A DNA stretch of 64,000 bases, from IMG/VR virus record IMGVR_UViG_3300007747_000009, positions 1 to 64,000 of that record; one strand, 5' to 3'. Below the pieces are notes generated by a model that did not search any database, was not told the origin of the DNA, and worked only from the letters and a program-made list of their open reading frames with translations. This DNA is from a virus. Taxonomy: Duplodnaviria > Caudoviricetes. A program made the position numbers and the translations under genes. Positions within the stretch are counted from its first letter, which is position 1. The number at the start of each line of letters is the position of its first letter. Positions 3,730 to 22,182 of this stretch are shown piece after piece.

Positions 3730-3731
3730 GA

Positions 3732-4070: not shown

Positions 4071-4082
4071 GGGGCTTTTCTT
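4055..4082. terminator. Bidirectional intrinsic terminator between convergent blocks
   Basis: AAAAGCCCC-gttaa-GGGGCTTTT with A and T tracts on either side. Confidence 0.8.
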
Positions 4083-4088
4083 ATCAAT

Positions 4089-5396: not shown

Positions 5397-5408
5397 TTCT
5401 CTTTATCC

Positions 5409-6584
5409 TTATGTTCTTGGATCATCTAATGTGAATATATTTGAAGCTGGGCCACCATAAGTAGTTACTAAACCTGTACTATATACAAAATTACCATCAG
5501 TTAAAAATGTCCTACTTTGTATTGTAGTTATATATAAACTACTCATGTCTGTTAAACCACTAGGTAATGTACATGCAGTGTAGTTTAACGCGTTAGTCGA
5601 TGAACCAATACCTAATTTACCTGCGTAAGTTGTAGCACCACTATTATAACCCGCAGCATATACACCAGAAGATGTAATGACGTGCTGTGAATAATAACAA
5701 TATCCATAACTATGCCCCAGTACTGTACCCACTGGAGCGGGAGACTGAACAGCAAATGCCTTGATGTTTGAAACAGTACCATCTATGCCATTTGCCATTT
5801 GACCAAAAATCTGTGAACCACCACTCCATATAGTATTAACACCAGCACTCGTCTTGACCACTCCAAGAGCTAATCCGACCCCTGAGTTAGAATAACTCTG
5901 CACTGTACTAGAAGCTGGAACAGTACTCAAAGTATATACAGTGTAACTGGTCTGAGTCGTATTGCCGATTACCGCATTCACTCCCCCAGTATAATACAAT
6001 TTACCTAACGTACTAATGAATGATTGCATCGTATTTTCACTGTGAATACGATCAGGTATTACACCCACTGGAATAGTAGCTGTCCTAAACGCTCCCAAAA
6101 CGTTATTTGTTGTTGTACCATCACCCAACTGACCTAAAGAACCAGCACCAGCAGTTCTAATAGTATTGTCACTGCATAAAACACTTATACTATTTAACGC
6201 CAACGATATCTGCTTTATGCTTACCCCAGTACTCGTTATGGTGTTAAATAATGAACTACAATCAGTCCATGTATTAACTGATGCGGCCTGAAATCCTATA
6301 CCTACTCCATTTCCAGTGAATTGATAACTTCCATTCTTCTTTAATACAATTATAGAAGTTCCACCAACCCACATATCACTAACATCTGTTGTACTCAATG
6401 TCCATACCGTCCGTACCGTATTATCTCCTACACCCAATTGCCCAACTGAATTAAGTCCACGAGTATATACATAACCATTACTCATCAGTACTGCTACAAA
6501 GTTATTACCGCATCTAATTTTCTGGATAGCTTTCGGTACTGGTGCCTTGTTATTGTGTTTTAAAATCCTTACAAATGGTATCAT
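5409..6584 (-). CDS. MIPF-family RCC1/BLIP-II-like repeat protein
   Basis: GLNSVGQLGVGD and GQLGDGT RCC1 repeats. Confidence 0.8.
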   Translation of the reverse strand: MIPFVRILKHNNKAPVPKAIQKIRCGNNFVAVLMSNGYVYTRGLNSVGQLGVGDNTVRTVWTLSTTDVSDMWVGGTSIIVLKKNGSYQFTGNGVGIGFQAASVNTWTDCSSLFNTITSTGVSIKQISLALNSISVLCSDNTIRTAGAGSLGQLGDGTTTNNVLGAFRTATIPVGVIPDRIHSENTMQSFISTLGKLYYTGGVNAVIGNTTQTSYTVYTLSTVPASSTVQSYSNSGVGLALGVVKTSAGVNTIWSGGSQIFGQMANGIDGTVSNIKAFAVQSPAPVGTVLGHSYGYCYYSQHVITSSGVYAAGYNSGATTYAGKLGIGSSTNALNYTACTLPSGLTDMSSLYITTIQSRTFLTDGNFVYSTGLVTTYGGPASNIFTLDDPRT

Positions 6585-6595
6585 ACCCTTCCTCC

Positions 6596-7732
6596 TTATT
6601 TCGGTAATGCCAACGGCTGCAATGTAGTTACATTTGAACTAAATCCTAACACAGTCGCTAATGCTCCACACGCATATACCGTATCTTTATTATTAACAAA
6701 CGCTACTATTGAATTACACGCCATTAAATCACTGTACGTATTTAAGTACTGACCAGAATTTAACATCTTTACAAAACCTGCCTGTACTGCTAAACTGCCT
6801 ACTCCACTCTCACCATATACGGTGTTCTGACCTGCGTAATAAAATCCATCTTCACATACTATTAACTTCGAAAAGTTATTTCCAAATGTTATATTATAAC
6901 ACTTATCAGCAAATCTAACAAATGGTGATGTCAATGTCTTTGGATTGCTAAAACTATATTGACCGGGTGTTGCAGATGTACCACTTCCAGCTAATGCGTT
7001 ATTAGAATTTGTACCTGCACCATAATATGTAAGTCTATCAGTGAAAACCATATTAGATGATGTATTAATATATGAAGCAATCGTAGAAGAGGGACTCGTA
7101 ACCTTAGTTAATGGAATGCCCGCATTAATCGAAACATTTCCTACACCAGCACATCCATTAGAGTTATAACCTTGGAAATAATAATCAGTACCCTTTCGTA
7201 CCGTATAACAGTAATTGCCTATAACTACACTATCTACTCCGTCAGTCATTAACTTAAATACTGTACTAGGTGAAGATATCTCGTTAAAATTATTTGTACC
7301 AATAACAAATAATTGCTTGTTCGTGTCCAATGCATATAATGTTCCTCCCCTACCTACATAAAAATTTAATATAGCATATGTACTCGGAATACCCGCAACC
7401 TTTGCACTGCAATCAGTAAATGTACTCAATGTTCCTGAACTGCCAATCGTCGCACCTATACCACTGAACTTATAAGTCCCATCATTTAATAATAATAATG
7501 TCCCGCAACCTCCACTCCAAAATTTATCAACTCCCTCAGCAATTAATATCCACGAAGTCTGTCTCGTGTTATTTCCTAGACCGAACTGTGAATATGTCTG
7601 CTGACCCCTAGCATATAACTCTCCAGTACTGTATAATATATACATGTTCTGATCAGCCATGTCCAATTTCTTTATCTTAGGTAGTACTGGTGCACTATTC
7701 CCATATACCCCTATCCTTGCAAATGGTATCAT
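6596..7732 (-). CDS. MIPF-family RCC1/BLIP-II-like repeat protein
   Basis: GELYARGQQTYSQFGLG and related repeats. Confidence 0.75.
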   Translation of the reverse strand: MIPFARIGVYGNSAPVLPKIKKLDMADQNMYILYSTGELYARGQQTYSQFGLGNNTRQTSWILIAEGVDKFWSGGCGTLLLLNDGTYKFSGIGATIGSSGTLSTFTDCSAKVAGIPSTYAILNFYVGRGGTLYALDTNKQLFVIGTNNFNEISSPSTVFKLMTDGVDSVVIGNYCYTVRKGTDYYFQGYNSNGCAGVGNVSINAGIPLTKVTSPSSTIASYINTSSNMVFTDRLTYYGAGTNSNNALAGSGTSATPGQYSFSNPKTLTSPFVRFADKCYNITFGNNFSKLIVCEDGFYYAGQNTVYGESGVGSLAVQAGFVKMLNSGQYLNTYSDLMACNSIVAFVNNKDTVYACGALATVLGFSSNVTTLQPLALPK

Positions 7733-8862
7733 ATTACCCCCGTTATTGCTAATCTACTTATTGTTTGTACCGTTTCCGTGAAATCCGGTAATAATCCCGC
7801 ATAGGTATTGTCCTGTCGTCCAACACCATATAATACATTACTCTTAACATTATATGTCCTTATATCTCCGTGTGCTACACTTGTACTTCCTAATAAATCA
7901 GGAACTGCTGTCCATGTCGCAATCACAGATGCAGAAGATCCAGTACCCAATGAATACGTATTCGCACCAGTACAATACCATGTACCATCGGCAACCCTCA
8001 TATGTACTAACTGCGATCTAGTACTTATCTCAACCGGTATCAGTGTGCTCGCCTTTGCGTAAGTCTGAGGATTGCCATTAATTGCACCATTACCCCATAC
8101 ACCACTTACGTTGGAACCACTGCAATATAATCCATCTGCCTTACCAAAATAACTCGTTAGATTACCCGCCGCAACAAATGTTATAGCAGCCGCTGCTGGA
8201 ACAACCTGATAAAATGTACTCTTGTTCGCAGTAGAACTCGAATCATTTAACTGATACGACGAATTTAATCCAGTTCCCATCACCGCACCAGTACTCAATA
8301 ACAAATATATATTAGAACCATTAGGATTCGTCACCGCCTGTAATATATTTGTATATTGAGTTATCTCTGTCAATGTACTTAAGTTATTAGTATTTCCTAA
8401 TCCCAACTGACCATAAAAATTATACCCACTCCTATATACGCGGTTACTCGTTGTCTGTACAACAAAGGTATAATCACCCAAGGATATATTTAAATATGCA
8501 GAATCTAATGCACTAAAATTTGTACTGATATTAACAAACGAACCACCAGAGGTCGCATTCGTTCCAGTAAATGGATATGCCCTCCCAGTATACCACCATG
8601 TACCATCGTTCTTTATTATTAATGTAGTAAATGTCCCACTGCACCAAACATCCTGTACCTCAGTATTAACCAACACCCAACGATCAGTTACGTTAACCGT
8701 ATTACCAGTACCCAATTGTCCCTCTACGTTTCTACCTCTACTGTATAAATTACCACTAGTAGTTAATATAACTACATATTTGTCTCCAGCTTGAACCTTT
8801 TTTATTATATCTGTCCTAGCTAACGTATTCCCATATACCCCTATTCTCGAAAATGGTATCAT
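7729..8862 (-). CDS. MIPF-family RCC1/BLIP-II-like repeat protein
   Basis: GRNVEGQLGTGN, GYNFYGQLGLGN. Confidence 0.8.
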   Translation of the reverse strand: MIPFSRIGVYGNTLARTDIIKKVQAGDKYVVILTTSGNLYSRGRNVEGQLGTGNTVNVTDRWVLVNTEVQDVWCSGTFTTLIIKNDGTWWYTGRAYPFTGTNATSGGSFVNISTNFSALDSAYLNISLGDYTFVVQTTSNRVYRSGYNFYGQLGLGNTNNLSTLTEITQYTNILQAVTNPNGSNIYLLLSTGAVMGTGLNSSYQLNDSSSTANKSTFYQVVPAAAAITFVAAGNLTSYFGKADGLYCSGSNVSGVWGNGAINGNPQTYAKASTLIPVEISTRSQLVHMRVADGTWYCTGANTYSLGTGSSASVIATWTAVPDLLGSTSVAHGDIRTYNVKSNVLYGVGRQDNTYAGLLPDFTETVQTISRLAITGVI

Positions 8863-9974
8863 AATCCTAACCCCAATTTCTGCATCCCCGTCACAGCCCC
8901 TGTATAGTAAGGCAATAACACAGAACCACTACCTATCCCACTACCATATACGTCCTTATCCAGTACACCATATAGTACCCTATAGCCGAACTGGATATCC
9001 TCTATCTTTATACCTATGTCCTTTATATACGAACTCGGAACCAATGTAGGTGTAGATACGTTTTCTGTACTCGTGCCACTCAAACTGTTCTGACCTGTTA
9101 TGTAATAATTACCTGAACTGTATATCATGCACGAATAATTATTAGCAACAAATCCAGTAATAGTACCCGGAATATTGCGTCTAGCTAAACCTACATTCGT
9201 GTTAGCATTTATACCATTACCCAATTGTCCACTGAAACTCGTACCACCTGTATATAACCCATCACTCTTAAGTACATATATACTCAAATGTCCCATCTGT
9301 AAATCAATCGCACCAGCAGCATTAGGTGCTTCAGTAAACACATTAGGTCTAGCCGGTGAAGTAAATCCTAACTGATAATTACTGTTCTCCCCACAACCAT
9401 ACACAGAACCATCATTCTTCAAAATCGTAGTACTATCACCCGTAATTGTACCAACCACCTTCTTAACATCAGTAGCTAGTAATCGAAATGATTGTACCGG
9501 TGTAGTATTCCCTGTACCCAATGAACCATTGTTATTATATCCCATACCATATAAATTAGAACTACCATCTATGTAAAATATATTATAACCCGTTAATGTA
9601 AGGGAAGAACGATAAGTACTAGCAGATCCCAACAAAGATGTACAATCAGTAAATCCATATACCGCACCATTATTAGTACCCAAAAATAAATCCCTACCCG
9701 TGTACATAAATGTACCATCAGTCTTGGATATCAATGCAGTTAACTGATTATTAACCCATATGTCTGATACGTTTGTCTGTACTAATGTCCACCTAGATAA
9801 CTGTGTCACCGTACTAGGTAATCCACATACACCATTAGCATTACTACCTATAGCATATAAATTACCATCATGATTTAATAGATACATGTTGTTAAACATT
9901 GTAACGAACTTCTTTAATCCCTCTATAATCGGTATCTTATTACCGTATACCCCTATCCTTGCAAATGGTATCAT
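8859..9974 (-). CDS. MIPF-family RCC1/BLIP-II-like repeat protein
   Basis: Start re-set to MIPFARIG (9974, GGGAGAGAG RBS); DGSVYGCGENSNYQLG. Confidence 0.8.
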   Translation of the reverse strand: MIPFARIGVYGNKIPIIEGLKKFVTMFNNMYLLNHDGNLYAIGSNANGVCGLPSTVTQLSRWTLVQTNVSDIWVNNQLTALISKTDGTFMYTGRDLFLGTNNGAVYGFTDCTSLLGSASTYRSSLTLTGYNIFYIDGSSNLYGMGYNNNGSLGTGNTTPVQSFRLLATDVKKVVGTITGDSTTILKNDGSVYGCGENSNYQLGFTSPARPNVFTEAPNAAGAIDLQMGHLSIYVLKSDGLYTGGTSFSGQLGNGINANTNVGLARRNIPGTITGFVANNYSCMIYSSGNYYITGQNSLSGTSTENVSTPTLVPSSYIKDIGIKIEDIQFGYRVLYGVLDKDVYGSGIGSGSVLLPYYTGAVTGMQKLGLGL

Positions 9975-9984
9975 CTCTCTCCCC

Positions 9985-11121
9985 TTAATATGGTGTACTA
10001 ATCTGTACAAACTGTGTTTGATTCGTTGTGTATCCCGGTGCACATGAATTACTTGCATCTCCACTGAAGTATAACTTATTATCGTAAGCAATATATGTGC
10101 GACTGAATCCAGCACAAACAGTATTTAATTTACTCAAGTCCGTGAAAATATTAGATCCTAATAACTTGTAAGATGTGCTGTTAACTACTGTTCCATCACC
10201 CAACTCACCATTTGTATTATTACCTGACCTGTATATTCCTGTACTCAATACAAATATCGGTGAACAAAATAAACTCGTACTATTGTATATGTTAGACTGC
10301 GTAATACCAACCGGCTTCAATGACGATATCGAAGAGAAACCCACACTATTTCCAGTACTCAATCCATTACCAGCAACACCAGCACCAAATGCTCCAGATA
10401 CATATAAATTTGTATTGTAATATATAGATGCAGTTGTCCTACTAAATGCACAAATATTTGCATTCAATCCAACTGTACTATTTGCAGCAAAAAATGTACT
10501 CCTAGTGTTAACTGTACCATCAGCAAGCTGACCATAAGCATTCAATCCACACGAATATATCCTAGAACCAGAAATATAGTATATACCACTACCACCATTA
10601 TCAAATATATTACTCACTCCAGTTGCCATAACCTGTGGAGTACTTATTCTCGTCGCCGTACCTATACCCAACTGACCCTGATTGTTTAATCCACATCCAT
10701 AAAATACCGAACCCGATAATATAGATAAGGTTTGACTCAATTCAATCTTCGTTATAGAAGCCAGTACCGAAGAATCTAATCCAAGTAATGATGTTATATC
10801 CGTAAATGATAACCTACTAACATTTGTACTACCTATGCATGTTCCAACTCCACTCAGATAATAACTACTTCCTTTACGGATCAATGTATTATTTGCACCA
10901 TTCCATACATCATCAACTCCTGTACTTAATAATGTTAAAGAAGTCCGGTTTGTTGTATCCCCTAATCCTAATTCTCCTGTACTATTTGCACCACAACCAT
11001 ATAATTCTCCTGTACTATATAATACAAATAAAGTATTAGTGTAATTAATTACCTTCTTTATTATCGGCTTCGGCGGAATCACCTTATTATCATATTTTAA
11101 AATCCTAGCAAATGGTATCAT
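9985..11121 (-). CDS. MIPF-family RCC1/BLIP-II-like repeat protein
   Basis: GANSTGELGLGD, GLNNQGQLGIG, GLNAYGQLADG. Confidence 0.8.
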   Translation of the reverse strand: MIPFARILKYDNKVIPPKPIIKKVINYTNTLFVLYSTGELYGCGANSTGELGLGDTTNRTSLTLLSTGVDDVWNGANNTLIRKGSSYYLSGVGTCIGSTNVSRLSFTDITSLLGLDSSVLASITKIELSQTLSILSGSVFYGCGLNNQGQLGIGTATRISTPQVMATGVSNIFDNGGSGIYYISGSRIYSCGLNAYGQLADGTVNTRSTFFAANSTVGLNANICAFSRTTASIYYNTNLYVSGAFGAGVAGNGLSTGNSVGFSSISSLKPVGITQSNIYNSTSLFCSPIFVLSTGIYRSGNNTNGELGDGTVVNSTSYKLLGSNIFTDLSKLNTVCAGFSRTYIAYDNKLYFSGDASNSCAPGYTTNQTQFVQISTPY

Positions 11122-11131: not shown

Positions 11132-11818
11132 TCATAATATCTCCGTTATCTTTAATCTCTTTATATATCCATTGAAGTTAAATTGTCCTAAAGCCAAATA
11201 ACTACCACCAATGTAAAATGCTTGACCCAACCCAAATGAATAATAAGGAAACGTCGTAGTAGTGTTCGTTAACTCCCTATAAGTACTTATACCCCTAGGC
11301 AAAGTATCCGTGGCTGTACTTATATACGTTAAAGTTAAATTCTCCCATACATTACTATTCGTACCCGGTGTCAATACTCGGTTAAAACCACTACCTGTAC
11401 CCGTATCCATAAAATATTGCATATAAGTAGATGGGTACTGATTCAACGTAAAACTAAATCCCGCCATTCTAGCACCCGGATAATCACCTGTACCAAATAC
11501 ACTCTCTACTACTGTACCAACCTGACGGAACTCGAACTCAATAGTGAAATTCTTATTGCGTAAATCTAATACAGAACCAGCAACTAATCCAGTACTGTAT
11601 ACCGTCTTAGACAAAGAACTAAACAACATAACGTTACTACCTATATCAGAATCGTATACAACCTCAGCAGGTGTCCCATTCTTCAACGTAAATGTACTCA
11701 AATTACTATGATCTACTATATCTGTACTACCAATAGCTTGACGGCTAAAATCAATATCAAGTAATACTCCAACTGTCCCCTTATTATTATATTTGCTGAT
11801 TATCGGAAATGGTATCAT
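11132..11818 (-). CDS. MIPF-family protein with LamG/concanavalin-A-like domain
   Basis: MIPF N-terminus; DLRNKNFTIEFEF and FYIGG...FNGYIKRLKI LamG signatures. Confidence 0.65.
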   Translation of the reverse strand: MIPFPIISKYNNKGTVGVLLDIDFSRQAIGSTDIVDHSNLSTFTLKNGTPAEVVYDSDIGSNVMLFSSLSKTVYSTGLVAGSVLDLRNKNFTIEFEFRQVGTVVESVFGTGDYPGARMAGFSFTLNQYPSTYMQYFMDTGTGSGFNRVLTPGTNSNVWENLTLTYISTATDTLPRGISTYRELTNTTTTFPYYSFGLGQAFYIGGSYLALGQFNFNGYIKRLKITEIL

Positions 11819-12137
11819 CTCTCTTCTCCTATATAAGCCATTATATCATATTTACCCCAAAGATCCCTCATAGGACTCCCTACAACTCATCACAGCAAGA
11901 CTTCTTATAAGGATAGACTCAGGTGTAGCTCCTGTAGAAAGCGGCGTAGAAGCTTATCGAAAGGATTCAACACCTGATAAAACACCCCATGTGCGAGTAC
12001 TGATATCTTTCTCTCTATATTATTATACAGGAAATCATTACAGATGTAATCATTTATGATAGCGTAGCATAACATCCATGAGCATCGTGTTATCCCGTAG
12101 GGCATCGTTTAGTACTGAAGTAATACCCAAAGAACTG

Positions 12138-12166
12138 TTCAGTACTCTTCAGTACTCTTCAGTACT
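12138..12166 (+). repeat. Short tandem repeat (TTCAGTACTC)x3 in an AGTACT-rich tract
   Basis: ttcagtactc ttcagtactc ttcagtact. Confidence 0.7.
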
Positions 12167-12905
12167 GATCACCCACGACCGCTATATCTTCTCTTCAAGA
12201 AGATACAAAGTACTGAAAAGTACTTACACCTTAAAATACAAAAGTACTGCTAACCTTTTTCCCAAAAGTACTTTAACGTGTGAGCAAAATTCTCACACTT
12301 GCTCCATCCTAAATCTGGATCCTATAAATTTTGGAGTACCTATGAACTAAAAGTTGGATCCTCGAAAGTTGGAAATTACATTTCTGGACTCAAGATTTTT
12401 CTTGACATCGTAAACAAAAATCTGTATTATGATAAAGGTGAAGATCCATTTGTGGTGTTTATTTTTCAGTACTGAAAAGTATGCTGGGACTGTATAAATT
12501 TACAGTACAAATAATACAAATAAATTAAAAAAAGACTTGACGAGGGGAATGGAGTTTGGCATACTACATGTGTTCCTTGAGTTGGAATGATTTTAAAGAT
12601 ACTGCTTTAAAAGGTTTGTGAGGATTGGTTACCCTCGGTATACAGTACTGGAGAATCAGTGCAATGATAATTCAGTACTGATTTTAAGTAAAGACTTCGT
12701 TCTGCCAAGAAGAGTAAAAAGTAGTAATGGTACAATAATAAGAAGGGAAGACCCCACTGAGTTGTTTAAATCTTGAAAGACTTATTCAGTACTACTAAAG
12801 TAGCTTCCAATAGAATGAGGATACTTTGGTAGTACTGATACATTTAGGGTAGAGTTAGGGTAGGGAAAGATTGGACGGATTTTGGGCGTAACTGTGCCTG
12901 TACTG

Positions 12906-13040
12906 AATGATAATCATTCGCAAATGTGAATAGTTCTCATTTGAAAAGCTAAATGATAATCATTATTATTTGAGAATGATTCTCATTTACGGATAGGAAT
13001 AATTCTCATTTGCATATGCAAACGATAATCATTTTCATTT
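12906..13040. promoter_or_regulatory. Tandem array of six Fur-box-like sites
   Basis: AATGATAATCATT (12906, 12952), TGTGAATAGTTCTCA, perfect 7-1-7 TGAGAAT-G-ATTCTCA (12971-12985), AGGAATAATTCTCA, CGATAATCATTTTCA. Confidence 0.7.
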
Positions 13041-13219
13041 AAATTTTCACCCGTTTTCGGGAATTGCCGAGCCTACCGCGTCGGGGTATATTCCCCAGCA
13101 GTATCTCACTATCAAATTGTTTAACTCGCAGCCATTATCTCACATAGGAGAATTATGTCAATACTTTTTTTCGTTAAAATAATGGTTGACAATCTTTCTG
13201 TACTTGATATAATAAACGC

Positions 13220-13265
13220 AACAAAGAGAAATTTGTAGCCCACAGGGTGCGGGAGTGCGTCCATA
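13220..13265 (+). ncRNA. CCC-AYA-GGG motif copy 1 (putative small RNA)
   Basis: TTGACA(13186)-16-TATAAT; CAAA-GAGAAA-TTTG hairpin; core TAGCCCACAGGGTG 13236-13249. Confidence 0.55.
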
Positions 13266-13281
13266 TTTTTTTAAATGCGAA

Positions 13282-13296
13282 TGAGAATCATTTTCA
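13282..13296. promoter_or_regulatory. Fur-box-like site
   Basis: TGAGAAT-C-ATTTTCA between two convergent motif copies. Confidence 0.55.
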
Positions 13297-13297
13297 A

Positions 13298-13346
13298 TTG
13301 TGGACGGATCCCCGCACCCTGTGGGTTAGTGACTTTCTCGTCTTTA
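13298..13346 (-). ncRNA. CCC-AYA-GGG motif copy 2 (putative small RNA)
   Basis: Minus-strand TATAAT at 13354-13359; GAC-GAGAAA-GTC hairpin; core CTAACCCACAGGGTG 13315-13329. Confidence 0.55.
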
Positions 13347-13484
13347 TGTATTCATTATACTGGACTGAAGAATTAACACAAGCTTTATTTTCATTTAAAT
13401 GAAAAATAATTTAGTACTTGCATTCTCTTATCATTATAGTACAATAGCTGTTATTGAAACGATACACTATTAAGGAAAGCAATC

Positions 13485-13892
13485 ATGTACACAAAACAAC
13501 AACAATACATTGCAGTACTGGAAGTTTTAAATCTGATGAAAGCATGTTTTGATGCAAACGATACTTATGTATGCATTGATGGCAAGTCTTTTAACTTGCA
13601 TAAGACTTTTGGTATTTGCTGGCATGTATACGCCAGCACGCCAGCCCCTGAGATCAGCGGTATAGATCATACCTATTTGGAACAAGCCTTTTTAGATATG
13701 GGATTAAAGCCTACTCTGCCGGTCGAATCACAATTACAATATGAATCCGTATCCCAATGGGATTTACATAATAGTACTCGTTACGATCGTTATAATCCTA
13801 GTACTGAAGTAGGGCAGACACGTATTAAATTAGTAAATGATTTGATTAAGTACTTTAATAATGTATTGACTACTGAATCAGAAGCTGTATAA
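13485..13892 (+). CDS. Hypothetical protein (early cassette)
   Basis: TTGCAT-17-TACAAT promoter; TAAGGA RBS. Confidence 0.75.
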   Translation: MYTKQQQYIAVLEVLNLMKACFDANDTYVCIDGKSFNLHKTFGICWHVYASTPAPEISGIDHTYLEQAFLDMGLKPTLPVESQLQYESVSQWDLHNSTRYDRYNPSTEVGQTRIKLVNDLIKYFNNVLTTESEAV

Positions 13893-13897
13893 TAGTT

Positions 13898-13932
13898 TGC
13901 ATAGGGGGAAATGATTCCCCCGTTATTAAGGA
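13898..13932 (+). promoter_or_regulatory. 5' leader hairpin plus RBS (PeSL-like; about 12 copies in 13.9-32.2 kb)
   Basis: TTGCATA-GGGGGAA-n4-6-TTCCCCC-nnTATTAAGGAA. Related copies at about 15251, 16101, 17768, 18568, 19368, 19674, 22836, 25811, 29939, 31078 and 32170. Confidence 0.75.
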
Positions 13933-13940
13933 ATAGAATT

Positions 13941-14174
13941 ATGTCTCAATTTAAAGTTACGGTAAGTACAATCGCTGTAGGTCAAGCTGGATCTGATAAG
14001 CTTTTGGTACTGTCAGAGTTACCGGACAATAAAGCGGTAACAGCAATTGAATCATGGGTTACTGAGATCTATGGTAACAATGTATCAGTCAGTACTGAAA
14101 AGCTGAATAACAGCAATGAAGTGTATGTGAATGATCTGTATCATGGAAAGTATCATAAAGTAATTTGTCTGTAA
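13941..14174 (+). CDS. Hypothetical protein
   Basis: Start re-set to MSQFKV after the leader hairpin and RBS. Confidence 0.7.
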   Translation: MSQFKVTVSTIAVGQAGSDKLLVLSELPDNKAVTAIESWVTEIYGNNVSVSTEKLNNSNEVYVNDLYHGKYHKVICL

Positions 14175-14180
14175 TTATTA

Positions 14181-14216
14181 AAAGTACTTGCCTATACGTT
14201 GCGAGTACTTTATAAT
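14181..14216 (+). promoter_or_regulatory. Palindromic sigma70 promoter AAAGTACTTGC-n9-GCGAGTACTTT-ATAAT (about 8 copies)
   Basis: The -35 TTGCNN lies in the left arm and TATAAT abuts the right arm. Other copies at about 15508, 21431, 21777, 23661, 24054, 24281 and 30928 (variant). Confidence 0.75.
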
Positions 14217-14246
14217 ACTTATATACAAACAAACGAGGATATACAG

Positions 14247-14645
14247 ATGGACGCATTAACAAAGACTAAGCAAGTGAACGCAGCATTAACCGCAGCACTT
14301 GCCCAGATTGCTAAGGATCATAATCTGGACTCACTGAAGCTCGGCAAACTAACCTATTCGGATAATGGTTTTAGTGCAACGGTATCCGCTATTTTTGCCG
14401 GTGGCGATTCTAAAGATATGGCTAAGTTACGTCGCAATGCGTTTATCTATGGCTTGAAAGAAAGCGTATGTAATGCTGTGATCACTTACAATAAACAGGA
14501 ATTTAAAGTTATTGGTATGCGTAATACCAAGATGGTATTGGAGCAGGCTGGTAAAACATACACCGCACCGATTGAATCAGTACTGAATGCTATTAAAGTA
14601 TATCATCCTGAGCATGTTAATTCAATCAAAGTTAACGGAAAATAA
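14247..14645 (+). CDS. Hypothetical protein
   Basis: Start re-set to MDALTK; GAGGA RBS. Confidence 0.75.
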   Translation: MDALTKTKQVNAALTAALAQIAKDHNLDSLKLGKLTYSDNGFSATVSAIFAGGDSKDMAKLRRNAFIYGLKESVCNAVITYNKQEFKVIGMRNTKMVLEQAGKTYTAPIESVLNAIKVYHPEHVNSIKVNGK

Positions 14646-14694
14646 TTACAAAATAAAGGTTGACACTAGTCAGCCTTTTTGTTATTCTATATGT

Positions 14695-14742
14695 ACTCCA
14701 GCGAAATGGACTAACCCTTTAGGGTGCGGAGATCCGTCTTGA
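14695..14742 (+). ncRNA. CCC-AYA-GGG motif copy 3 (putative small RNA)
   Basis: Terminator-promoter at 14655-14688; TCCA-GCGAAA-TGGA hairpin; core CTAACCCTTTAGGGTG 14711-14726. Confidence 0.55.
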
Positions 14743-14831
14743 TTTTGTATATTTCTTTTTATTGAAATAGTACTTGATTATTGAGTACAAACATGTATAA
14801 TTATTGTATCGAAACTAATGGGAGTACTGAA

Positions 14832-15224
14832 ATGGGGCAAAATCTGTATGGCGATCCGCTTAATTCTGCACTTGATTATCTTAATAACAATGTGAATTTT
14901 AAAGCGGGTACTGGGAAAAAGTACAAAACAGAAGAAGATTACTATCAGGCTTTTGTGGAAGCGGGATCCCTATCAGGAGGGCGTAGTTTCTATCCTAGTG
15001 ATGAACTACGGCGTCGGTTATGGAAACGTGCTCATGCTCGTTATAGCAAAGATTTTCCTAAGCCTTATCACAAGTTGCATACACTTGATGAAATGGTAGC
15101 AGAAATACATTTACGTGGCGTGGCGTATTTTAGTAATAGTTATCACGGGAAAGATCTTTCACGCATTGCACTGATGAAAGAAGCAGTTGACGTTTATTTT
15201 AAAGAAAAGAAAAATAAAGGTTGA
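14832..15224 (+). CDS. Hypothetical protein
   Basis: Start re-set to MGQNLY; GGGAG RBS; own promoter. Confidence 0.7.
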   Translation: MGQNLYGDPLNSALDYLNNNVNFKAGTGKKYKTEEDYYQAFVEAGSLSGGRSFYPSDELRRRLWKRAHARYSKDFPKPYHKLHTLDEMVAEIHLRGVAYFSNSYHGKDLSRIALMKEAVDVYFKEKKNKG

Positions 15225-15297
15225 CTATAAAGTCTAGTACTGTATAATTGTTTGCATAGGGGGAAACATCTTCCCCCCGCTATTAAGGAAAGTACTA

Positions 15298-15501
15298 ATG
15301 ACACGTCAAGACGCAATCGCAGACCATAAAGCAATCTGGATCGATTTCTGCAAAGGTAACAAATCGGCAAGGACTGATGTTGTTATGTTCAATGAAGATT
15401 GGCATAATCATATTGATCGCTTACATCGTAGCGGTGAAATCACAGACCGTCAAGCTGATACGTGGGATAACTATCCGATCCCTAAGCGTTATAAAGATTA
15501 A
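15298..15501 (+). CDS. Hypothetical protein
   Basis: Promoter, leader hairpin and RBS cassette. Confidence 0.75.
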   Translation: MTRQDAIADHKAIWIDFCKGNKSARTDVVMFNEDWHNHIDRLHRSGEITDRQADTWDNYPIPKRYKD

Positions 15502-15583
15502 TTATTAAAAGTACTTGCATAACCTTAGCGAGTACTTTATAATACTTATATTGAGTTAACTAATACTATTAAGGAAAAGTACA

Positions 15584-16066
15584 ATGAAAAAGTTTACTAT
15601 CTGGTCTGCTAAAACAAATACTGATTATGATATGGCAGTACGTGACGGGGCAACCTATCCAGTACTGTTACCTGATAATGTTTCCGTTGAATCGGTTACC
15701 CGCATTCTTGAAACCGTTGGGGATTGTTATAGCGGCGAAAAAGAACATTTCAAGTTCACATGGGAAACTGTTCCTGATGCTTTCGCATTGTTCACTTATA
15801 CTCAAAGTACTGAGGACTTAGTACGTGCTGGCGTGGGCGTGTTCCCTTTGTTTGACAATCGCAGTACTCATGATTTGAAAGAATCAGATTTTATTCAGTT
15901 CGTGCGTAGTGAAGTGAACGTCTTGTCCGTCCGTCCGGTTAAAGCGAATGGGCGTACTACGTTCCATTACTTTAATTCACAAGATCAGCAGTGTATTCTT
16001 GAGATCACGAAAACGAAAACTATCACGCCAGAACTCGCAGAACAACTGAAAGAATTAAATCTTTAA
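15584..16066 (+). CDS. Hypothetical protein
   Basis: Palindromic promoter; TAAGGA RBS. Confidence 0.75.
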   Translation: MKKFTIWSAKTNTDYDMAVRDGATYPVLLPDNVSVESVTRILETVGDCYSGEKEHFKFTWETVPDAFALFTYTQSTEDLVRAGVGVFPLFDNRSTHDLKESDFIQFVRSEVNVLSVRPVKANGRTTFHYFNSQDQQCILEITKTKTITPELAEQLKELNL

Positions 16067-16146
16067 AGTACTTGACTATCTCATTCAGTCCAGTATAATT
16101 GTTTGCATAGGGGGAAACATCTTCCCCCGCTATTAAGGAAAAGATT

Positions 16147-16446
16147 ATGGGATTATCTATCACTATCAATCGCCCAGTGTGGTTGTCTGAAGAACTTGAA
16201 CTGGAATTCGATGTAACTGTCAATAGTAATTCAACTGATGAGTTGATCCGTGATGTTACTGTGTACAAGTTCAATGATGTAGTGGTGAATATCAATCCAG
16301 TACTGGAAGCATTATCAACTGGTTTATTCCCTGTACAGATTGGGGAATTCAGTATTGATGAATCAGCGGCTAACACAATGGAAATGATCATTGTGGACGC
16401 TAATCAAGCACTGATCGCGTCGATCCGTGCTATCACAACACTGTAA
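16147..16446 (+). CDS. Hypothetical acidic protein
   Basis: Promoter, leader hairpin and RBS cassette. Confidence 0.75.
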   Translation: MGLSITINRPVWLSEELELEFDVTVNSNSTDELIRDVTVYKFNDVVVNINPVLEALSTGLFPVQIGEFSIDESAANTMEMIIVDANQALIASIRAITTL

Positions 16447-16455
16447 GGGGAAAGC

Positions 16456-16593
16456 ATGTTCAAGTTATTGGGTGTAGTTGTATTGGTTGCGGTTGTTGCA
16501 ATTGGTATTGATATGTACCGCAACGGTACGAAAACCGTTACCGTTGAAAACGGTAAGACTACCACGGTTTACTCATACCACACAACATGGTAG
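16456..16593 (+). CDS. Small membrane-anchored protein (45 aa)
   Basis: MFKLLGVVVLVAVVAIG...; GGGG RBS; followed by a terminator. Confidence 0.6.
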   Translation: MFKLLGVVVLVAVVAIGIDMYRNGTKTVTVENGKTTTVYSYHTTW

Positions 16594-16606
16594 TATAGCA
16601 GAAAAT

Positions 16607-16634
16607 CGGGAGGCTGTAAAGCTTCCCATTTTTT
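16607..16634. terminator. Intrinsic terminator
   Basis: GGGAGGCT-gtaa-AGCTTCCC then T tract. Confidence 0.7.
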
Positions 16635-16652
16635 AGTACTCAAACACTTTTA

Positions 16653-16700
16653 TATAGATACACTCCAGCACCCTATGGGTTAGTGAGTTTCGCCTCAATG
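16653..16700 (-). ncRNA. CCC-AYA-GGG motif copy 4 (putative small RNA)
   Basis: Minus-strand TTGACA-17-TATTAT; GAG-GCGAAA-CTC hairpin; core 16669-16683; points into the terminator at 16607. Confidence 0.6.
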
Positions 16701-16944
16701 AATACATAATACTACACCAGAAAACTTCTGTCAATACTTTATTTCGATAAAATACGTGCATAATCATTCAGTACTGAATCAATTAATGAATAGTATTAGG
16801 TACTTTAAGCGGGTTAAATGAATGAATAAGCACATAAAAAAGCTCTAGGGTAAGTGCCTTGCGTTTTTGCTATTTTTAGTAATATTTGCATTATTTGATT
16901 AAAAGTACTTGACGGGGTGCGTGAAGTACTATAATATGTATCAC

Positions 16945-17020
16945 ATCAGGCGGGGATAACGAGTTAAGTTATCTAAAGTAGACAAGTCAGTAAGTCGCAC
17001 GAACAACTGACCCCGACGGA
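16945..17020 (+). ncRNA. Putative multi-stem small RNA or structured leader
   Basis: Promoter TTGACG..TATAAT at 16909-16935. Pairings CGGG/CCCG, GATAAC/GTTATC and GTCAGT/ACTGAC. The next gene has its own promoter at 17041. Confidence 0.4.
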
Positions 17021-17124
17021 AAAAAGATTTAAAATAAGTATTGACAGACACGCGGAAATATAAGATAATGACTGCGTAGACAAGAAAACAACTAAACTAA
17101 CTTAAACTTTAAGAGGATTTAAAA

Positions 17125-17673
17125 ATGACTACTCCTAACACTGCTGTTGAAACTACTGCTGTAACTGCAACCCGCGTAACTTTCAAATCTGCTTTACTCG
17201 CAGGTGATGTTAAAGGGCTTGCGTCAATCCTCGCGGATCTTGGTACTGATAAAGCGGGCGTCCAGAAATTGGGCTTGACTTTCTCCCTTGCGGTTAAAGA
17301 CGCACAGGAAGTACTCAAAGCACGCCAGAAAGCAATTGATGACGCAGCCGCGAATATCCAGAAAGAAAAAGAAAACATGGTTAAATTCTTGATGGATACC
17401 GTAGACGGATTGGGTATGGATCTCGATACCGCACAGATCGCCGCTGATGCAGCAATCGCGAAAAAGTACAACACAGTATCGGACAAAAAGAAATATACTT
17501 TCCCACGCGTAGCTGTAAACGTTGGCGGTAAAGTGTACGAAATGCAAACATCCGGTAACGTAATTCAAGTACTTAAAGACGCAATGAAAGCGACGGGCTT
17601 GACTACTCATAAAGAATTTATCCTTGCTCATGCAGTGGATAAAGAAGCCGCTGCCGCCGCTTTCGCTGAATAA
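17125..17673 (+). CDS. H-NS/StpA-like nucleoid-associated protein (divergent)
   Basis: AAANIQKEKENMVKFLMDTVDGLGMD parallels the H-NS coiled coil [25 protein letters not shown]. C-terminal KKKY...SGNVIQVLKDAMKATG..KEFIL parallels AKY...QGRTPAVIKKAMDEQG..DDFLI. Confidence 0.5.
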   Translation: MTTPNTAVETTAVTATRVTFKSALLAGDVKGLASILADLGTDKAGVQKLGLTFSLAVKDAQEVLKARQKAIDDAAANIQKEKENMVKFLMDTVDGLGMDLDTAQIAADAAIAKKYNTVSDKKKYTFPRVAVNVGGKVYEMQTSGNVIQVLKDAMKATGLTTHKEFILAHAVDKEAAAAAFAE

Positions 17674-17697
17674 GCCTAGCAGGTTTAAAGAGTAAAG

Positions 17698-17722
17698 AAA
17701 ATCCCCGCAATGCGGGGATTTT
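17698..17722. terminator. Intrinsic terminator
   Basis: AAAATCCCCGC-aat-GCGGGGATTTT. Confidence 0.8.
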
Positions 17723-17812
17723 GCTGTTTAAAGTACTTGCAAAGTAATCTCAATGATGTATAATACTTTGCATAGGGGAAACAACTTCCCCCACTAATTA
17801 AGAGAATATATT

Positions 17813-18178
17813 ATGACAAATCTCAATATTATGGTGCAAGCTTATATTACCGCGATGCATTGGTCTAGTACTGATAGTAATGGGGATCCACTTGATAATT
17901 ATCCTACGTCACAGGAAGGAAAAGACAATGCGGCAACTACCTGTAATACTTTCCTGAAAGTACATGGCAATGATCTCAATGTAGTAATGGGCTTGCATCC
18001 GAACTATGGTTACAGTGAAGCGGGGCATGACCTGTTCCTTACAAGAGAGGGACACGGTGCGGGATTCTGGGATCGTGGTCTGGGTCATTATGGAGACGTG
18101 TTCACAAAGTACTCTGAAAGTATTGGTGAAGCTGATCCATATGTTGGTGATGATGGTTATGTGTACGTGAATGTTTAA
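17813..18178 (+). CDS. Conserved-type phage hypothetical protein
   Basis: GHDLFLTREGHGAGFWDRG motif; cassette promoter. Confidence 0.75.
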   Translation: MTNLNIMVQAYITAMHWSSTDSNGDPLDNYPTSQEGKDNAATTCNTFLKVHGNDLNVVMGLHPNYGYSEAGHDLFLTREGHGAGFWDRGLGHYGDVFTKYSESIGEADPYVGDDGYVYVNV

Positions 18179-18261
18179 AAGTTTTAGTCCAGTACTTGAC
18201 AATAGACTCGAGTACTGGCATAATAACTTTATTGAAACGAAACACTATTAAGGAAAGTACA

Positions 18262-18534
18262 ATGACTAAATTATTAAGCCGTGATGAAATTTTGGTAGTA
18301 CTGACTACTAACCTACAAGAATGGAAGCGACACGCAGACGTATCCGATGCACAGGATCTCAATGATGAATTGACTGAGGATGATATTAGTACAATTATAT
18401 CCCCTGAATTTTATGATGATATTCATAGTATGGATGATACATGGAACGTATTAGAAAAGCACTTCCTCGACACTGAGCTAGACATTTACACGCGGGATAC
18501 TTTTATTTTAATTCACAACATATATAACAATTAG
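18262..18534 (+). CDS. Hypothetical acidic protein
   Basis: Start re-set to MTKLLS; TTGACA-17-CATAAT promoter. Confidence 0.7.
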   Translation: MTKLLSRDEILVVLTTNLQEWKRHADVSDAQDLNDELTEDDISTIISPEFYDDIHSMDDTWNVLEKHFLDTELDIYTRDTFILIHNIYNN

Positions 18535-18612
18535 TACTTGCATTATCTTATCAGTACTGTATAATTGTTTGCATAGGGGGAAACATCTTCCCCCGCTATT
18601 AAGGAAAAGATT

Positions 18613-18816
18613 ATGTTATCACTGATCGAATTAAAAGCACTGTACAACGCTCACAAGTACAATGAACTATACAAAGAAGTACGGCGATATGGTACTATCA
18701 CGAATGACGTTGAACATGAAACGGTTCGCGTTATACACATAACGTATTATAACACGTTTTGGGATTTTGAGCTAGTTAAAGGTGAAGTAGTTCACGCTGG
18801 CTATTGTACTAAGTAA
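18613..18816 (+). CDS. Hypothetical protein
   Basis: Promoter, leader hairpin and RBS cassette. Confidence 0.7.
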   Translation: MLSLIELKALYNAHKYNELYKEVRRYGTITNDVEHETVRVIHITYYNTFWDFELVKGEVVHAGYCTK

Positions 18817-18825
18817 GGTTGAATA

Positions 18826-19086
18826 ATGGCTGTTGGATTTGCTAAAGACGGGGCAGAACAAAACGAGATTCTAGCGGTCGTGGAGGCCGCTGTAAGCCAC
18901 GCAAGAAAACAGCTTGGTGATGGTAGTACTGAATCGCTTACACACTGCCTCGATTGTTCTAGCCCTATTCCTGAGCGTCGCAGAGCATTGGTTAATGGTT
19001 GCAAGTACTGCGTAGAATGTCAATCACAGTATGATAGTACTTTTAAAAGAGATCCGCGTAATTGTTGGCATAGGAGTATGAGATGA
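18826..19086 (+). CDS. TraR/DksA family C4 zinc-finger protein (YbiI-like)
   Basis: MAVGFAKDGAEQNEI...HCLDCSSPIPERRRALVNGCKYCVECQ. Confidence 0.9.
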   Translation: MAVGFAKDGAEQNEILAVVEAAVSHARKQLGDGSTESLTHCLDCSSPIPERRRALVNGCKYCVECQSQYDSTFKRDPRNCWHRSMR

Positions 19087-19226
19087 TCTTTCAGTATAAC
19101 AAAGGTTGCTGCTCACTTAAAGGCTTTTATGCGGTATATTCTGACGGGGTAAACTATCGTTATCGGTTTGTCAAGTACTTTGTTTAAGGGGAGAGATCCC
19201 CTGTTTATTTGTACAGTACTAAAACC

Positions 19227-19270
19227 TATAGACGGACTGCTACACCCTATGGGCTTGTTTTTGTCTATGC
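19227..19270 (-). ncRNA. CCC-AYA-GGG motif copy 5 (putative small RNA)
   Basis: Minus-strand TTGACA-17-CATAAT; core CAAGCCCATAGGGTG 19243-19257; points into the hairpin at 19187-19203. Confidence 0.55.
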
Positions 19271-19414
19271 GTGTATTATGCCAGTACTGAATGAGGTTGT
19301 CAACATCTTTTTTCATTTAATTATTTGAAAATAGTTGTTGACTTACTTTTGGATTAGCGTATAATTGTTTGCATAGAGGGAAACAACTTCCCTCACTATT
19401 AAGGAAATAACAAT

Positions 19415-19636
19415 ATGTCTCGATATGTAATGTCAGTATTCAGTACTGCAAATGTCACTACTGGTAAAACCACTTATTACAAAATGGTGTGTGATGTGCC
19501 ACGTCGGGTATCAAAAGAAAACTTTGATAGCCTGTGTCATCAATCTAATCGTTCTGATAGTTACAGGACTGAAATGAATGGCAACTATATACGCCAGTAC
19601 AAAAGCATATACTTTAATTCAGTACCGAATGTTTAA
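19415..19636 (+). CDS. Hypothetical protein
   Basis: Cassette with leader hairpin. Confidence 0.7.
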   Translation: MSRYVMSVFSTANVTTGKTTYYKMVCDVPRRVSKENFDSLCHQSNRSDSYRTEMNGNYIRQYKSIYFNSVPNV

Positions 19637-19722
19637 AAAGTACTTGCAAAGTAATCTCAGTACTGTATAATTGTTTACATAGAGGGGAAAATGGTTCCCC
19701 TCCTTATTAAGAGAATAGTATC

Positions 19723-20061
19723 ATGAATAAATTCGAAAATGAAATCGTAGTTAAAGAATATGTTAACGGTTTTGGCTGGATTGATTCCTGTACTGAAAGC
19801 AATATCAAGGCAGCCCGCGAAACAAAAAAAGCATATCTGGCTGAAGGTGTAGGCTGTATGATCGTTCGTCGCCGCGTGTTGAACCGCACGAATGAAATGG
19901 TTAATGTAGTACTGAATCATTGCCGTGATTATTTCCGTGCTAATGGTAAATGGCCTGAATCGTTTAAGTACTATTTCCGCAACGGTAAAGTTAAATTTAC
20001 TTTGTCAACTAAGGAAATGCAAGAAATTTTAGGTTATGATTCCCGCTTAGTGGAAGCATAA
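19723..20061 (+). CDS. Hypothetical protein
   Basis: Cassette with leader hairpin. Confidence 0.7.
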   Translation: MNKFENEIVVKEYVNGFGWIDSCTESNIKAARETKKAYLAEGVGCMIVRRRVLNRTNEMVNVVLNHCRDYFRANGKWPESFKYYFRNGKVKFTLSTKEMQEILGYDSRLVEA

Positions 20062-20124
20062 AAGTACTTGACACATAACGGGGGTATGATACAATATCCC
20101 CACATTAAGCAAAGAGGAAAAGCA

Positions 20125-20370
20125 ATGCGGACTATTAATCAGTTAATTGATGCAGGTACGGTAGCAAAGCGATCTATGGTAACACTGGGTGATGGAAAAC
20201 CACACTGGGGCGGCTATGTTGCCTTTGTAGTGGACGGGAAGTTACATGAGCGGGTAGTATACCATAAGGATATTAATTATATCCTTTTCAGAAAGGAAGT
20301 TATAGCGATCGATCCTAACGCACTCAAACCCATCTCAGGGGCGTGGAATAAAGAATCACTATACGCCTAA
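20125..20370 (+). CDS. Hypothetical protein
   Basis: Start re-set to MRTINQ; GAGGA RBS. Confidence 0.7.
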   Translation: MRTINQLIDAGTVAKRSMVTLGDGKPHWGGYVAFVVDGKLHERVVYHKDINYILFRKEVIAIDPNALKPISGAWNKESLYA

Positions 20371-20422
20371 CAAAATTCATTAAAAGGCCGCCACGTGCGG
20401 CCTGTTTAGTTTTAGGGGGTAT

Positions 20423-20656
20423 ATGAACAAGTACACTAAGCCAGTACATACGGGGATCAGCACAGCACTTGATAGGCGTTATGTGAAGCCGATGAAGAAG
20501 CGTAGAAAGTACTTAAGGGAACCCGTACAGAAGATTGCACTCAGTTGGATGGATATAGACATATCATCATTATCCTTTGTGTGGCATAGCCCTATACATA
20601 GCCCTATACTACTTAATAAAAGTACTGAAGTACAAAATCCATTTAAAAGTACTTGA
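20423..20656 (+). CDS. Hypothetical basic protein
   Basis: GGGG RBS; 77 aa. Confidence 0.5.
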   Translation: MNKYTKPVHTGISTALDRRYVKPMKKRRKYLREPVQKIALSWMDIDISSLSFVWHSPIHSPILLNKSTEVQNPFKST

Positions 20657-20685
20657 CACATAACCGGCTTAATGGTATATTATTG

Positions 20686-20735
20686 TTAAGCCGGAGAAAC
20701 GGCACAACCCATAGGGTGTATAAATGCATTTATTT
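20686..20735 (+). ncRNA. CCC-AYA-GGG motif copy 6 (putative small RNA)
   Basis: TTGACA-17-TATATT; GCCG-GAGAAA-CGGC hairpin; core CAACCCATAGGGTG 20705-20718. Confidence 0.6.
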
Positions 20736-20824
20736 TTTAGTACTTTGAATTTTATTAAAAAGTACTTGCAAAGTAATCTCAGTACAGTATAATACTTACA
20801 TCAACCAAGTAGAGGATAAACAAA

Positions 20825-20983
20825 ATGGCGAAAACATATGAAGTTACGTATATGTATTTTGGTAAATCAGTTAAGCATGTTATACTCATCAGTGCAAACG
20901 ATACGGCACAGATCGCACCTAAGTTGCATAATATGTTCCCTGCACCAAACCGTGTGATTTTGGTAAGTTACAAAAAACTGTAA
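20825..20983 (+). CDS. Small hypothetical protein (52 aa)
   Basis: Own promoter; GAGGA RBS; MAKTYEVTY... Confidence 0.65.
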   Translation: MAKTYEVTYMYFGKSVKHVILISANDTAQIAPKLHNMFPAPNRVILVSYKKL

Positions 20984-21049
20984 AAGTACTTGCAACGTAA
21001 TTTTAATGAAGTATAATGATTACATCACTTAAGCAAAGAGAGAAATAAA

Positions 21050-21424: not shown

Positions 21425-21499
21425 TTATTAAAAGTACTTGCAATGTATTAGCGAGTACTTTATAATACTTACATCAACCAATAATATTAAGGAAATATC

Positions 21500-21766: not shown

Positions 21767-21841
21767 GATAGTATTAAAAGTACTTGCACAATACTAGCGA
21801 GTACTTTATAATACTATCATACATTAATTAAGGAAATAAAA

Positions 21842-22105: not shown

Positions 22106-22182
22106 TTAGTTAAGATAACTTGCACATTAATTACAGCAAAAAAAGGATTGACTCCGGTCAATCCTTTTGTTATTATATATGC

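Follow-up and report, generated by a model that had tools for sequence, protein, structure and literature searches.

Organization of the predicted left chromosome end

The window, meaning the whole stretch of DNA analysed here, comprises 64 kb from the start of an IMG/VR fragment of 108.9 kb, which is about 31% complete. DNA and protein matches were obtained to the 350-kb phages of Enterobacterales (Asteriusvirus, Alcyoneusvirus, Eneladusvirus, Munch/7t3 and fENko-Kae01) and, judged by this similarity, the source phage is a RaK2-like jumbo phage. Genes are located on the minus strand to the left of ~12.1 kb and on the plus strand to the right of 13.5 kb, and the region between them contains a leader with an array of predicted Fur boxes, promoter-like sites, a small hairpin and a long inverted repeat (Table 1).

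Direct terminal repeats of about 20 kb have been mapped in the relatives Muenster (20,030 bp), vB_Ec-M-J (21,525 bp) and fENko-Kae01 (19,736 bp, defined by PhageTerm in its record), and the first 1.3-1.7 kb of the relatives' terminal repeats are gene-free. The records of Serratia phage BF, Klebsiella phage fENko-Kae01 and Salmonella phage Munch start with TATCTTCTC and align to position 12185 of the window, while this terminus motif was not seen at the start of the Muenster record. To the left of the leader, an RCC1-like protein of 378 aa is encoded on the minus strand (9985-11121); it is named 'regulator of chromosome condensation' in relatives, and its homologues in RaK2-like phages are encoded near the right end of the unique region. 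Distant matches to this RCC1-repeat-like protein were also present in Clostridioides phages. We infer that the contig spans a concatemer junction or a collapsed repeat, that 12185 is the left chromosome end, and that 12185-13484 represents the untranslated leader of a terminal repeat of roughly 20 kb. The array starts 718 bp inside this predicted end, and the Fur sites of fENko-Kae01, Munch and Muenster start 735-787 bp from the beginning of their records.

Table 1. Features of the predicted leader and of the first open reading frame, with positions in the window.
Feature	Position	Strand	Basis or description
Predicted left chromosome end, left edge of the direct terminal repeat	12185-12205	unstranded	begins TATCTTCTC; 21-bp palindrome-like element
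Leader promoter-like site without gene, pointing at the array	12402-12430	+	TTGACA-17-TATTAT; consensus scan, 11/12
Second leader promoter-like site, ~340 nt upstream of the array	12537-12565	+	TTGACG-17-CATACT with TG extension; consensus scan
Conserved box directly before the array	12873-12892	unstranded	GGACGGATTTTGGGCGTAAC; window, L009, vB_Ec-M-J
Fur-box array	12903-13042	unstranded	Fur matrix scan, shuffle test, spacing; repeat family D1 (23/46-bp spacing)
Small hairpin between the array and the next promoters	13083-13096	unstranded	GGGGTATATTCCCC; judged by eye only
Promoter-like site facing the array	13134-13161	-	TTGACA-16-GATAAT with TG; consensus scan, 11/12
Perfect sigma-70 consensus promoter, reading into the inverted repeat	13186-13213	+	TTGACA-16-TATAAT with TG; scan 12/12
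Long inverted repeat I2, 93 bp	13236-13328	unstranded	arms 13236-13268 and 13296-13328; two inverted CCCACAGGGTGCGG copies
Seventh predicted Fur site, centre of the inverted repeat	13277-13301	unstranded	19.2 bits (13277-13295); 6-bp-offset partner at 13283
Weak promoter-like site converging on the inverted repeat	13354-13381	-	TTGTGT-16-TATAAT; read on the reverse complement, below scan threshold
First ORF in the terminal repeat (135 aa), with the credible start closest to the array	13485-13892	+	ORF list

The array is flanked by convergent promoter-like sites without genes. Similar promoters are found in L009, a complete genome of 366 kb in IMG/VR, at the place matching the 12537 site. The leftward site that faces the array has a visible counterpart in L009 and vB_Ec-M-J and none visible in Muenster, and the perfect sigma-70 promoter is kept in BF, L009 and Muenster. 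For the weak site converging on the inverted repeat, better counterparts were read in L009 (TTGACT-17-TATAAT) and Muenster (TTGATA-16-TATAAT). The core of the conserved box before the array has only one further occurrence in the contig, with one mismatch. Counterparts of the small hairpin are CGGAAT-atatt-ATTCCG in L009 and GGGGA-tagt-TTCCCC in vB_Ec-M-J, in which pairing, as judged by eye, is kept despite changes on both sides. The inverted repeat folds as RNA with -62.4 kcal/mol (z = -8.9), shows ~75% identity to BF and Erwinia phages, and has the seventh Fur site exactly at its centre. The first ORF is preceded by its own AGTAC-TTGCAT promoter at about 13405-13440. A search of 11800-13800 against Rfam at permissive thresholds gave no known RNA family, with two chance matches to microRNA families far below the gathering scores. 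An ORF of 27 aa with a good ribosome-binding site (13156-13239) was taken as non-coding because of a premature stop in BF.

Further repeated elements were recorded in this region. The palindrome AGTACT occurs 383 times in the 108.9 kb, where roughly 37 copies are expected by base composition, with the highest density in 12000-32000, where the terminal repeat is presumed to lie. In many cases the palindrome makes up the upstream part of an early promoter (AGTAC-TTGACx), and the leader has frequent copies of CAGTACTG. Eight copies of CCCACAGGGTGCGG with at most 2 mismatches are spread across 13239-31803, 3' of early promoters. An imperfect palindrome at 12302-12339 (CTCCATCCTAAATC...GATCCTA.AAATTTTGGAGTAC), ~120 bp inside the predicted end, is common to the window, L009, fENko-Kae01, Munch and vB_Ec-M-J and is a candidate site of end processing or recognition. 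Tandem repeats of 10 bp were found just outside the predicted terminus, namely ACTCTTCAGT in 3.3 copies in the window (12134-12166) and GCTACGGTAA in 3 copies in L009 (~1958-1995).

Matrix analysis of the Fur-box array

Twelve E. coli K-12 sites established by footprinting or gel shift (fepA-fes, fepD-entS, fepB, entC, fecA, fecI, fhuF1, fhuF2, ryhB, cirA, sodA and tonB) were used to construct a symmetrised Fur matrix of 19 bp; their coordinates were taken from tables in Chen et al. 2007 (PMC2189734) and moved to the current K-12 record via gene anchors. The matrix has the consensus GATAATGATAATCATTATC and an information content of 16.5 bits; its training sites score 12.6-22.7 bits, and 8.8-20.8 bits in leave-one-out scoring.

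A first-pass annotation of this DNA had described six Fur boxes in a region with no gene to regulate, more than 400 bp from the nearest credible start. Both strings it quoted were located: 12951-12971 reads AAATGATAATCATTATTATTT, and TGAGAAT-G-ATTCTCA, a perfect 7-1-7 palindrome, occupies 12971-12985. The nearest credible start, at 13485, is 445 bp off the array. Scored against the phage background, the main sites start at 12903 (14.5 bits), 12926 (7.9 bits, weak), 12949 (15.6 bits), 12972 (18.0 bits), 12995 (12.3 bits) and 13018 (20.2 bits), with a period of exactly 23 bp in which the weak 12926 site is included. Partner sites with a 6-bp offset accompany three of them (12909, 12955 and 13024, partners of 12903, 12949 and 13018). 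The array is thus real by the matrix, with its count revised to five strong sites and one weak site, to which the seventh site has to be added; this site lies 235 bp downstream of the array and had not been noticed before. With uniform background frequencies, values of 14-22 bits are reached by the strong sites of the array and by the loop site, which is the range of footprinted E. coli sites and makes them operator-grade by score.

The sites are concentrated at this locus. The best five Fur matches of the whole 108.9-kb contig (13018, 13277, 12972, 12949 and 12903) all fall within 12903-13295 and score 15-22 bits with the uniform background, eight of the 12 matches of at least 12 bits are inside 12880-13320, and the motif TGATAATNATTATCA, at no more than 2 mismatches, has 9 matches contig-wide with 5 of them in 12908-13296. 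It had been recognized from the outset that scores no higher than those of shuffled AT-rich sequence would speak against the array. In 5000 dinucleotide-preserving shuffles of 12900-13045, a mean of 0.02 sites of at least 12 bits was obtained (maximum 2), compared with 7 observed, and the top array score was reached by none of the shuffles (0/5000). The array has 26% G+C, and its repeat units share 64-75% mutual identity, yet without any indel. As an observation the array is confirmed, and it is stronger than originally put.

The leader and its array slot in related jumbo phages

No close relatives were found in IMG/VR by means of two flanking proteins; a conserved 28-mer of the inverted repeat then gave two loci. 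By alignment and sequence reading, the window has the terminus motif and the order of elements of the RaK2-like leaders. This order, which is kept in all relatives that were read, runs from the terminus through promoters, GGACGG box, array, hairpin and promoter to the inverted repeat with its box and the first gene. Conservation in related phages, which had been named as a check of the original claim, holds for the ordered leader and its array slot, while the content of the slot varies. The leaders of vB_Ec-M-J, Muenster, BF and fENko-Kae01 resemble the window in terminus motif (except Muenster), element order, array slot and centre box; they differ from it in that DNA identity is 75-83% in patches only, and in that the slot holds MetJ boxes in BF and vB_Ec-M-J.

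Fur-matrix arrays were found in L009 (five sites, 29-bp period) and in Klebsiella phages Muenster and KP13-7 (23-bp period). A reduced Fur array is present in fENko-Kae01 and Munch, and Fur sites are also present in XaC1. In Serratia phage BF (673-808) and E. coli phage vB_Ec-M-J (721-872) the slot has no Fur array and is filled by an array of 136-152 bp with about 17-19 tandem boxes of the met-box type (MetJ operator; consensus AGACGTCT). These boxes are in a strict 8-bp register with the consensus, with at least 22 of 32 positions matching at every 8-bp step. Among the loci examined, none had both array types at one locus. The presence of the MetJ array in the same slot of sister phages suggests that the module is apparently an array for an abundant host metabolite-sensing repressor and not for Fur as such.

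The box in the centre of the inverted repeat is a Fur site in the window, BF (17.9 bits), L009 (17.1), Muenster (19.0) and KP13-7 (19.7), and BF has kept it although its array is of the MetJ type. In vB_Ec-M-J, a GGACGG-type box (GGACGGATTTTGGGCGTAAC) is found in the hairpin loop at the inverted-repeat centre instead of the Fur box; the box is located at about 690-720, 1030-1060 and 1250-1275 of that genome. The genomes of Muenster and L009, both complete, have their Fur-type boxes almost exclusively in the first kilobases of the repeat.

Similar arrays in T5-like and other phages

A BLAST search with the array returned similar arrays in 278 phage records, mostly of T5-like phages, in addition to phi92/VEcB-like and other phages. 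Four of the matched phages were examined closely, namely chee24, phiR2-01, VEcB and T5. In chee24, the Fur sites are located at 9505-9669 of the record, within the left terminal repeat (1-9968) and adjoining paired DnaA boxes, and the arrays of phiR2-01 and VEcB are comparable to that of the window. The Fur-matrix sites of phage T5 (9476-9494, 9580-9598 and 9615-9633) coincide with the annotated 'direct repeat C' copies and with palindromes E, G and I of Repeat Region 3 (AY587007), in which direct repeat C has copies 1-4. The sites at 9476-9633 surround the shear point of first-step transfer, which is placed at about 9618 in a 2020 preprint (Davison, 10.1101/866236); there the T5 repeats are described as functionally unexplained and the host factor of two-step injection as still unsolved, and Fur is not mentioned.

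Repeat Region 3 of T5, the injection stop signal region, and the window have in common a non-coding position in a long terminal repeat, which for the window is inferred from its relatives, and an array of Fur-matrix sites with spacing of the 6n+5 type (23, 29 or 35 bp in T5); the T5 array is conserved across T5-like phages. The T5 array is 0.5 kb from the inner edge of the 10-kb repeat, beside paired DnaA boxes and a nick site, whereas the array of the window is 0.7 kb from the outer (left) end and has no DnaA boxes beside it, and the phage families are unrelated. A search of 12100-13500 for TTATCCACA (up to 1 mismatch) and for TTWTNCACA gave no DnaA box. The arrangement of paired DnaA boxes in inverted repeats (IRD'-spacer-IRC') was thus missing from the window, while it is present in chee24 and phiR2-01. 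We know of no two-step injection in jumbo phages.

Neighbour distances between sites were counted in the window, L009, Muenster, KP13-7, chee24, phiR2-01, VEcB and T5, which belong to three unrelated phage groups. A spacing of 6n+5 bp (17, 23, 29, 35 or 41) was found for 25 of the 34 distances, which are not independent, as units are tandemly duplicated and some phages are related; three more distances are 52 bp (23 + 29). The absence of indels from units that are only 64-75% identical argues for selection acting on the spacing of the array units.

Predicted DNA-binding protein

Members of the Fur family (PF01475) were searched for in five genomes, and none was found in the fragment of the window (about 31% of the genome), the complete genome of L009, Muenster, BF or vB_Ec-M-J; in the positive controls of this search, 14 of 14 genomes were matched. 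Base frequencies were compiled from 28 distinct phage sites scoring at least 12 bits, and their correlation with the E. coli matrix is r = 0.94, a value that is partly circular since the sites were selected by the matrix. At the positions flanking the matrix, 75% of these sites have T (position 0) and 75% have A (position 20). The 21-bp extended Fur consensus carries the same flanking T and A, and agreement at these two positions is thus a check independent of the matrix.

Overlapping sites with a 6-bp offset are typical of genuine Fur clusters (PMC2189734), and the array likewise has a perfect 7-1-7 palindrome and, like the loop site at 13277, overlapping sites at +6 (12903, 12949 and 13018). 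The clusters of entC, fepB, ryhB, sodA, fhuF and fecI in E. coli (PMC2189734) are like the array in the 19-bp consensus, the score range and the 6-bp-offset pairs; the 12949 site agrees with the operator of entC over 18 consecutive bases, and further sites are similar to the operators of ryhB and sodA. Unlike the array, these clusters overlap a repressed promoter and are continuous, with 3- or 6-bp offsets. The array consists of discrete operators 23 bp apart (6n+5), without a gene or conserved promoter, at the chromosome end of a virulent phage. The only promoter-like site that it overlaps, at 12941-12969, was rejected because it is not conserved in L009 or Muenster. In E. coli K-12, several of the strongest predicted Fur clusters are beside the cryptic-prophage genes nohA, nohB, ydfK and ynaE (PMC2189734, Table 4), which hints at phage-borne Fur sites in lambdoid elements as well.

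The phage families with such arrays share hosts and no known DNA-binding protein, and the array that can take its place is made of operators for another host repressor, so that a host protein is the economical ligand. On these grounds, host Fur is probably the protein that binds the array.

Proposed function of the array

The reading that we favour, with a probability of about 0.42, is that host Fur coats the array and acts in cis at the chromosome end, titration being a by-product. In an iron-replete host, Fe2+-loaded Fur dimers would occupy the six 23-bp-spaced operators and their 6-bp-offset partners, coating about 140 bp, and the same dimers would also be placed on the single 13277 site in the inverted repeat. 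Host RNA polymerase would be stopped or insulated by this nucleoprotein block between convergent gene-less promoters, and in more general terms the DNA end would be marked or organised by the block, on entry or during replication, in line with the iron status of the host. Possible effects of the block are a stop to polymerase, insulation, control over the pace of DNA entry, and protection of the end or help in forming it; titration of Fur by replicating genomes would be expected as a side effect. A cis role is favoured by the constant position and sequence of elements in the leader, the rule on spacing, the centred single boxes, the swap with the array of another repressor and the case of T5. 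Host DNA is degraded and host synthesis shut off within about 5 minutes by T5, so that a trans effect on host genes cannot account for the T5 arrays.

From the interpretation given in the first-pass annotation, the operator-grade predicted Fur boxes, the lack of a gene or conserved promoter beneath them, the position near the genome end and the preference for a host ligand are retained; titration as the main reading is not. The second option it offered, in which Fur is an architectural factor or a roadblock close to the genome end, agrees better with the findings than a sponge. Fur normally occludes promoters, and a roadblock is, to our knowledge, not an established mode of its action. Convergent promoters around the array are evident in the window and L009 and not in Muenster, and the part of the mechanism that concerns transcription may not be general. 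The position 'near an end' is likewise a loose common factor, at 0.7 kb from the end in the jumbo phages and at 0.5 kb from the inner repeat edge in T5.

The main rival is that the array soaks up Fur as genomes replicate, by which host iron uptake would be derepressed, and that MetJ arrays would act likewise on methionine/SAM synthesis. Multicopy plasmids with one Fur box reportedly derepress a Fur reporter (the FURTA of Stojiljkovic, 1994), and the array resembles these in having many strong Fur-site copies on a replicating element with nothing regulated in cis, although FURTA is a laboratory artefact of high-copy plasmids. The position in a terminal repeat gives two copies per virion genome, and with a pool said to be roughly 5,000-10,000 Fur monomers per cell (attributed to Zheng, 1999), about 7-14 sites on each of 50-100 or more genomes approach that pool. 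Titration is therefore physically plausible as a consequence, as hundreds of replicating genomes with 7-14 sites each should titrate Fur late in infection. The 17-19 tandem met boxes of the sister phages far exceed regulatory need and form arrays far longer than any known chromosomal operator, and they suit a sponge at least as well as a role in cis. A sponge, however, requires no fixed position, order or spacing, all three of which are conserved, and it leaves the single boxes exactly inside inverted repeats unexplained. One incoming genome would titrate less than 1% of the Fur pool, so that the effect would come late, when new host transporters are of little help, and the same arrays occur in T5-like phages with their rapid destruction of host DNA. 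We consider titration unlikely as the main function. Classical repression, in which Fur on a promoter in or beside the array (TTGAAA-17-TATTAT at 12941-12969, or a flanking one) would allow an ncRNA or leader transcript only in an iron-starved host, could draw on the overlap of the 12949 site with the promoter-like sequence, on the position of the 13277 site about 60 nt downstream of the perfect promoter, and on the overlap with sigma-70 promoters that is reported for about 83% of the Fur clusters in E. coli (PMC2189734). The internal promoter is nevertheless the one that L009 and Muenster lack, and Fur boxes resemble -10 hexamers anyway; downstream there is no Rfam family and no conserved ORF, and the early-gene promoters across 13.5-32 kb have no Fur sites of at least 12 bits. 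Repression of this kind is accordingly regarded as quite unlikely.

Two further explanations dispense with Fur. The ligand might be a phage-encoded DNA-binding protein outside the Fur family with a Fur-like site, for which the array would be a loading site in packaging, replication or early control. The terminal repeat has genes for dozens of small proteins without an assigned function, and the array type co-varies with phage lineage. This is made improbable by boxes that follow the host consensus position by position, flanking T and A included, by their keeping of the overlapping-site habit of real Fur clusters, by their recurrence in unrelated phage families that have hosts rather than known proteins in common, and by an alternative array that is the operator of a second host repressor, in genomes with no Fur-family gene among the five searched. 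Highly improbable, in our estimate, is a protein-independent element, either an AT-rich region of origin unwinding or a terminase recognition (pac) repeat. The array is repeat-rich and low in G+C, is near the predicted cut site, and coincides with a strand switch and the minimum of cumulative GC skew, but this minimum is accounted for by the divergent gene orientation at the genome end. The slot of relatives holds a met-box array richer in G+C, which means that a low melting temperature is not the conserved property; 12100-13500 is free of DnaA boxes, and a terminase site would not match two different host operators. An iteron-type origin was rejected for similar reasons, namely the missing DnaA boxes, repeats that correspond to the operator of a host repressor, and met boxes in the slot of relatives.

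Significance for virulent enterobacterial phages

Fur boxes are textbook elements of bacterial iron promoters. In a full-text search, in which subscription journals are sparsely covered, no paper was found in which Fur boxes are connected with virulent phages, jumbo and T5-like phages included, and none on the jumbo-lineage Fur array or on the Fur/MetJ slot swap. The present analysis adds a Fur-type leader in at least three lineages of jumbo phages, direct evidence for the exchange of Fur and MetJ arrays at a single slot, and the rule of 6n+5 spacing. A wider proposal, which we put forward as doubtful, is that at least three unrelated families of virulent enterobacterial phages (RaK2-like, T5-like and phi92/VEcB-like) carry interchangeable operator arrays for host repressors (Fur/iron, MetJ/SAM) near their ends as cis gates, by which DNA entry, end protection or first transcription would be coupled to host metabolism; the injection stop of T5 would then belong here, Fur being the host factor that is sought.

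If Fur binds these arrays, the phages use the iron sensor of the host on their own chromosome ends, and a cheap and concrete test becomes available for the host factor of two-step injection in T5. That the same slot can hold either a Fur or a MetJ array is a pointer to a general module by which host repressors are read or exploited. Such arrays could explain an iron- or methionine-dependent infection efficiency of jumbo phages that are considered for therapy.
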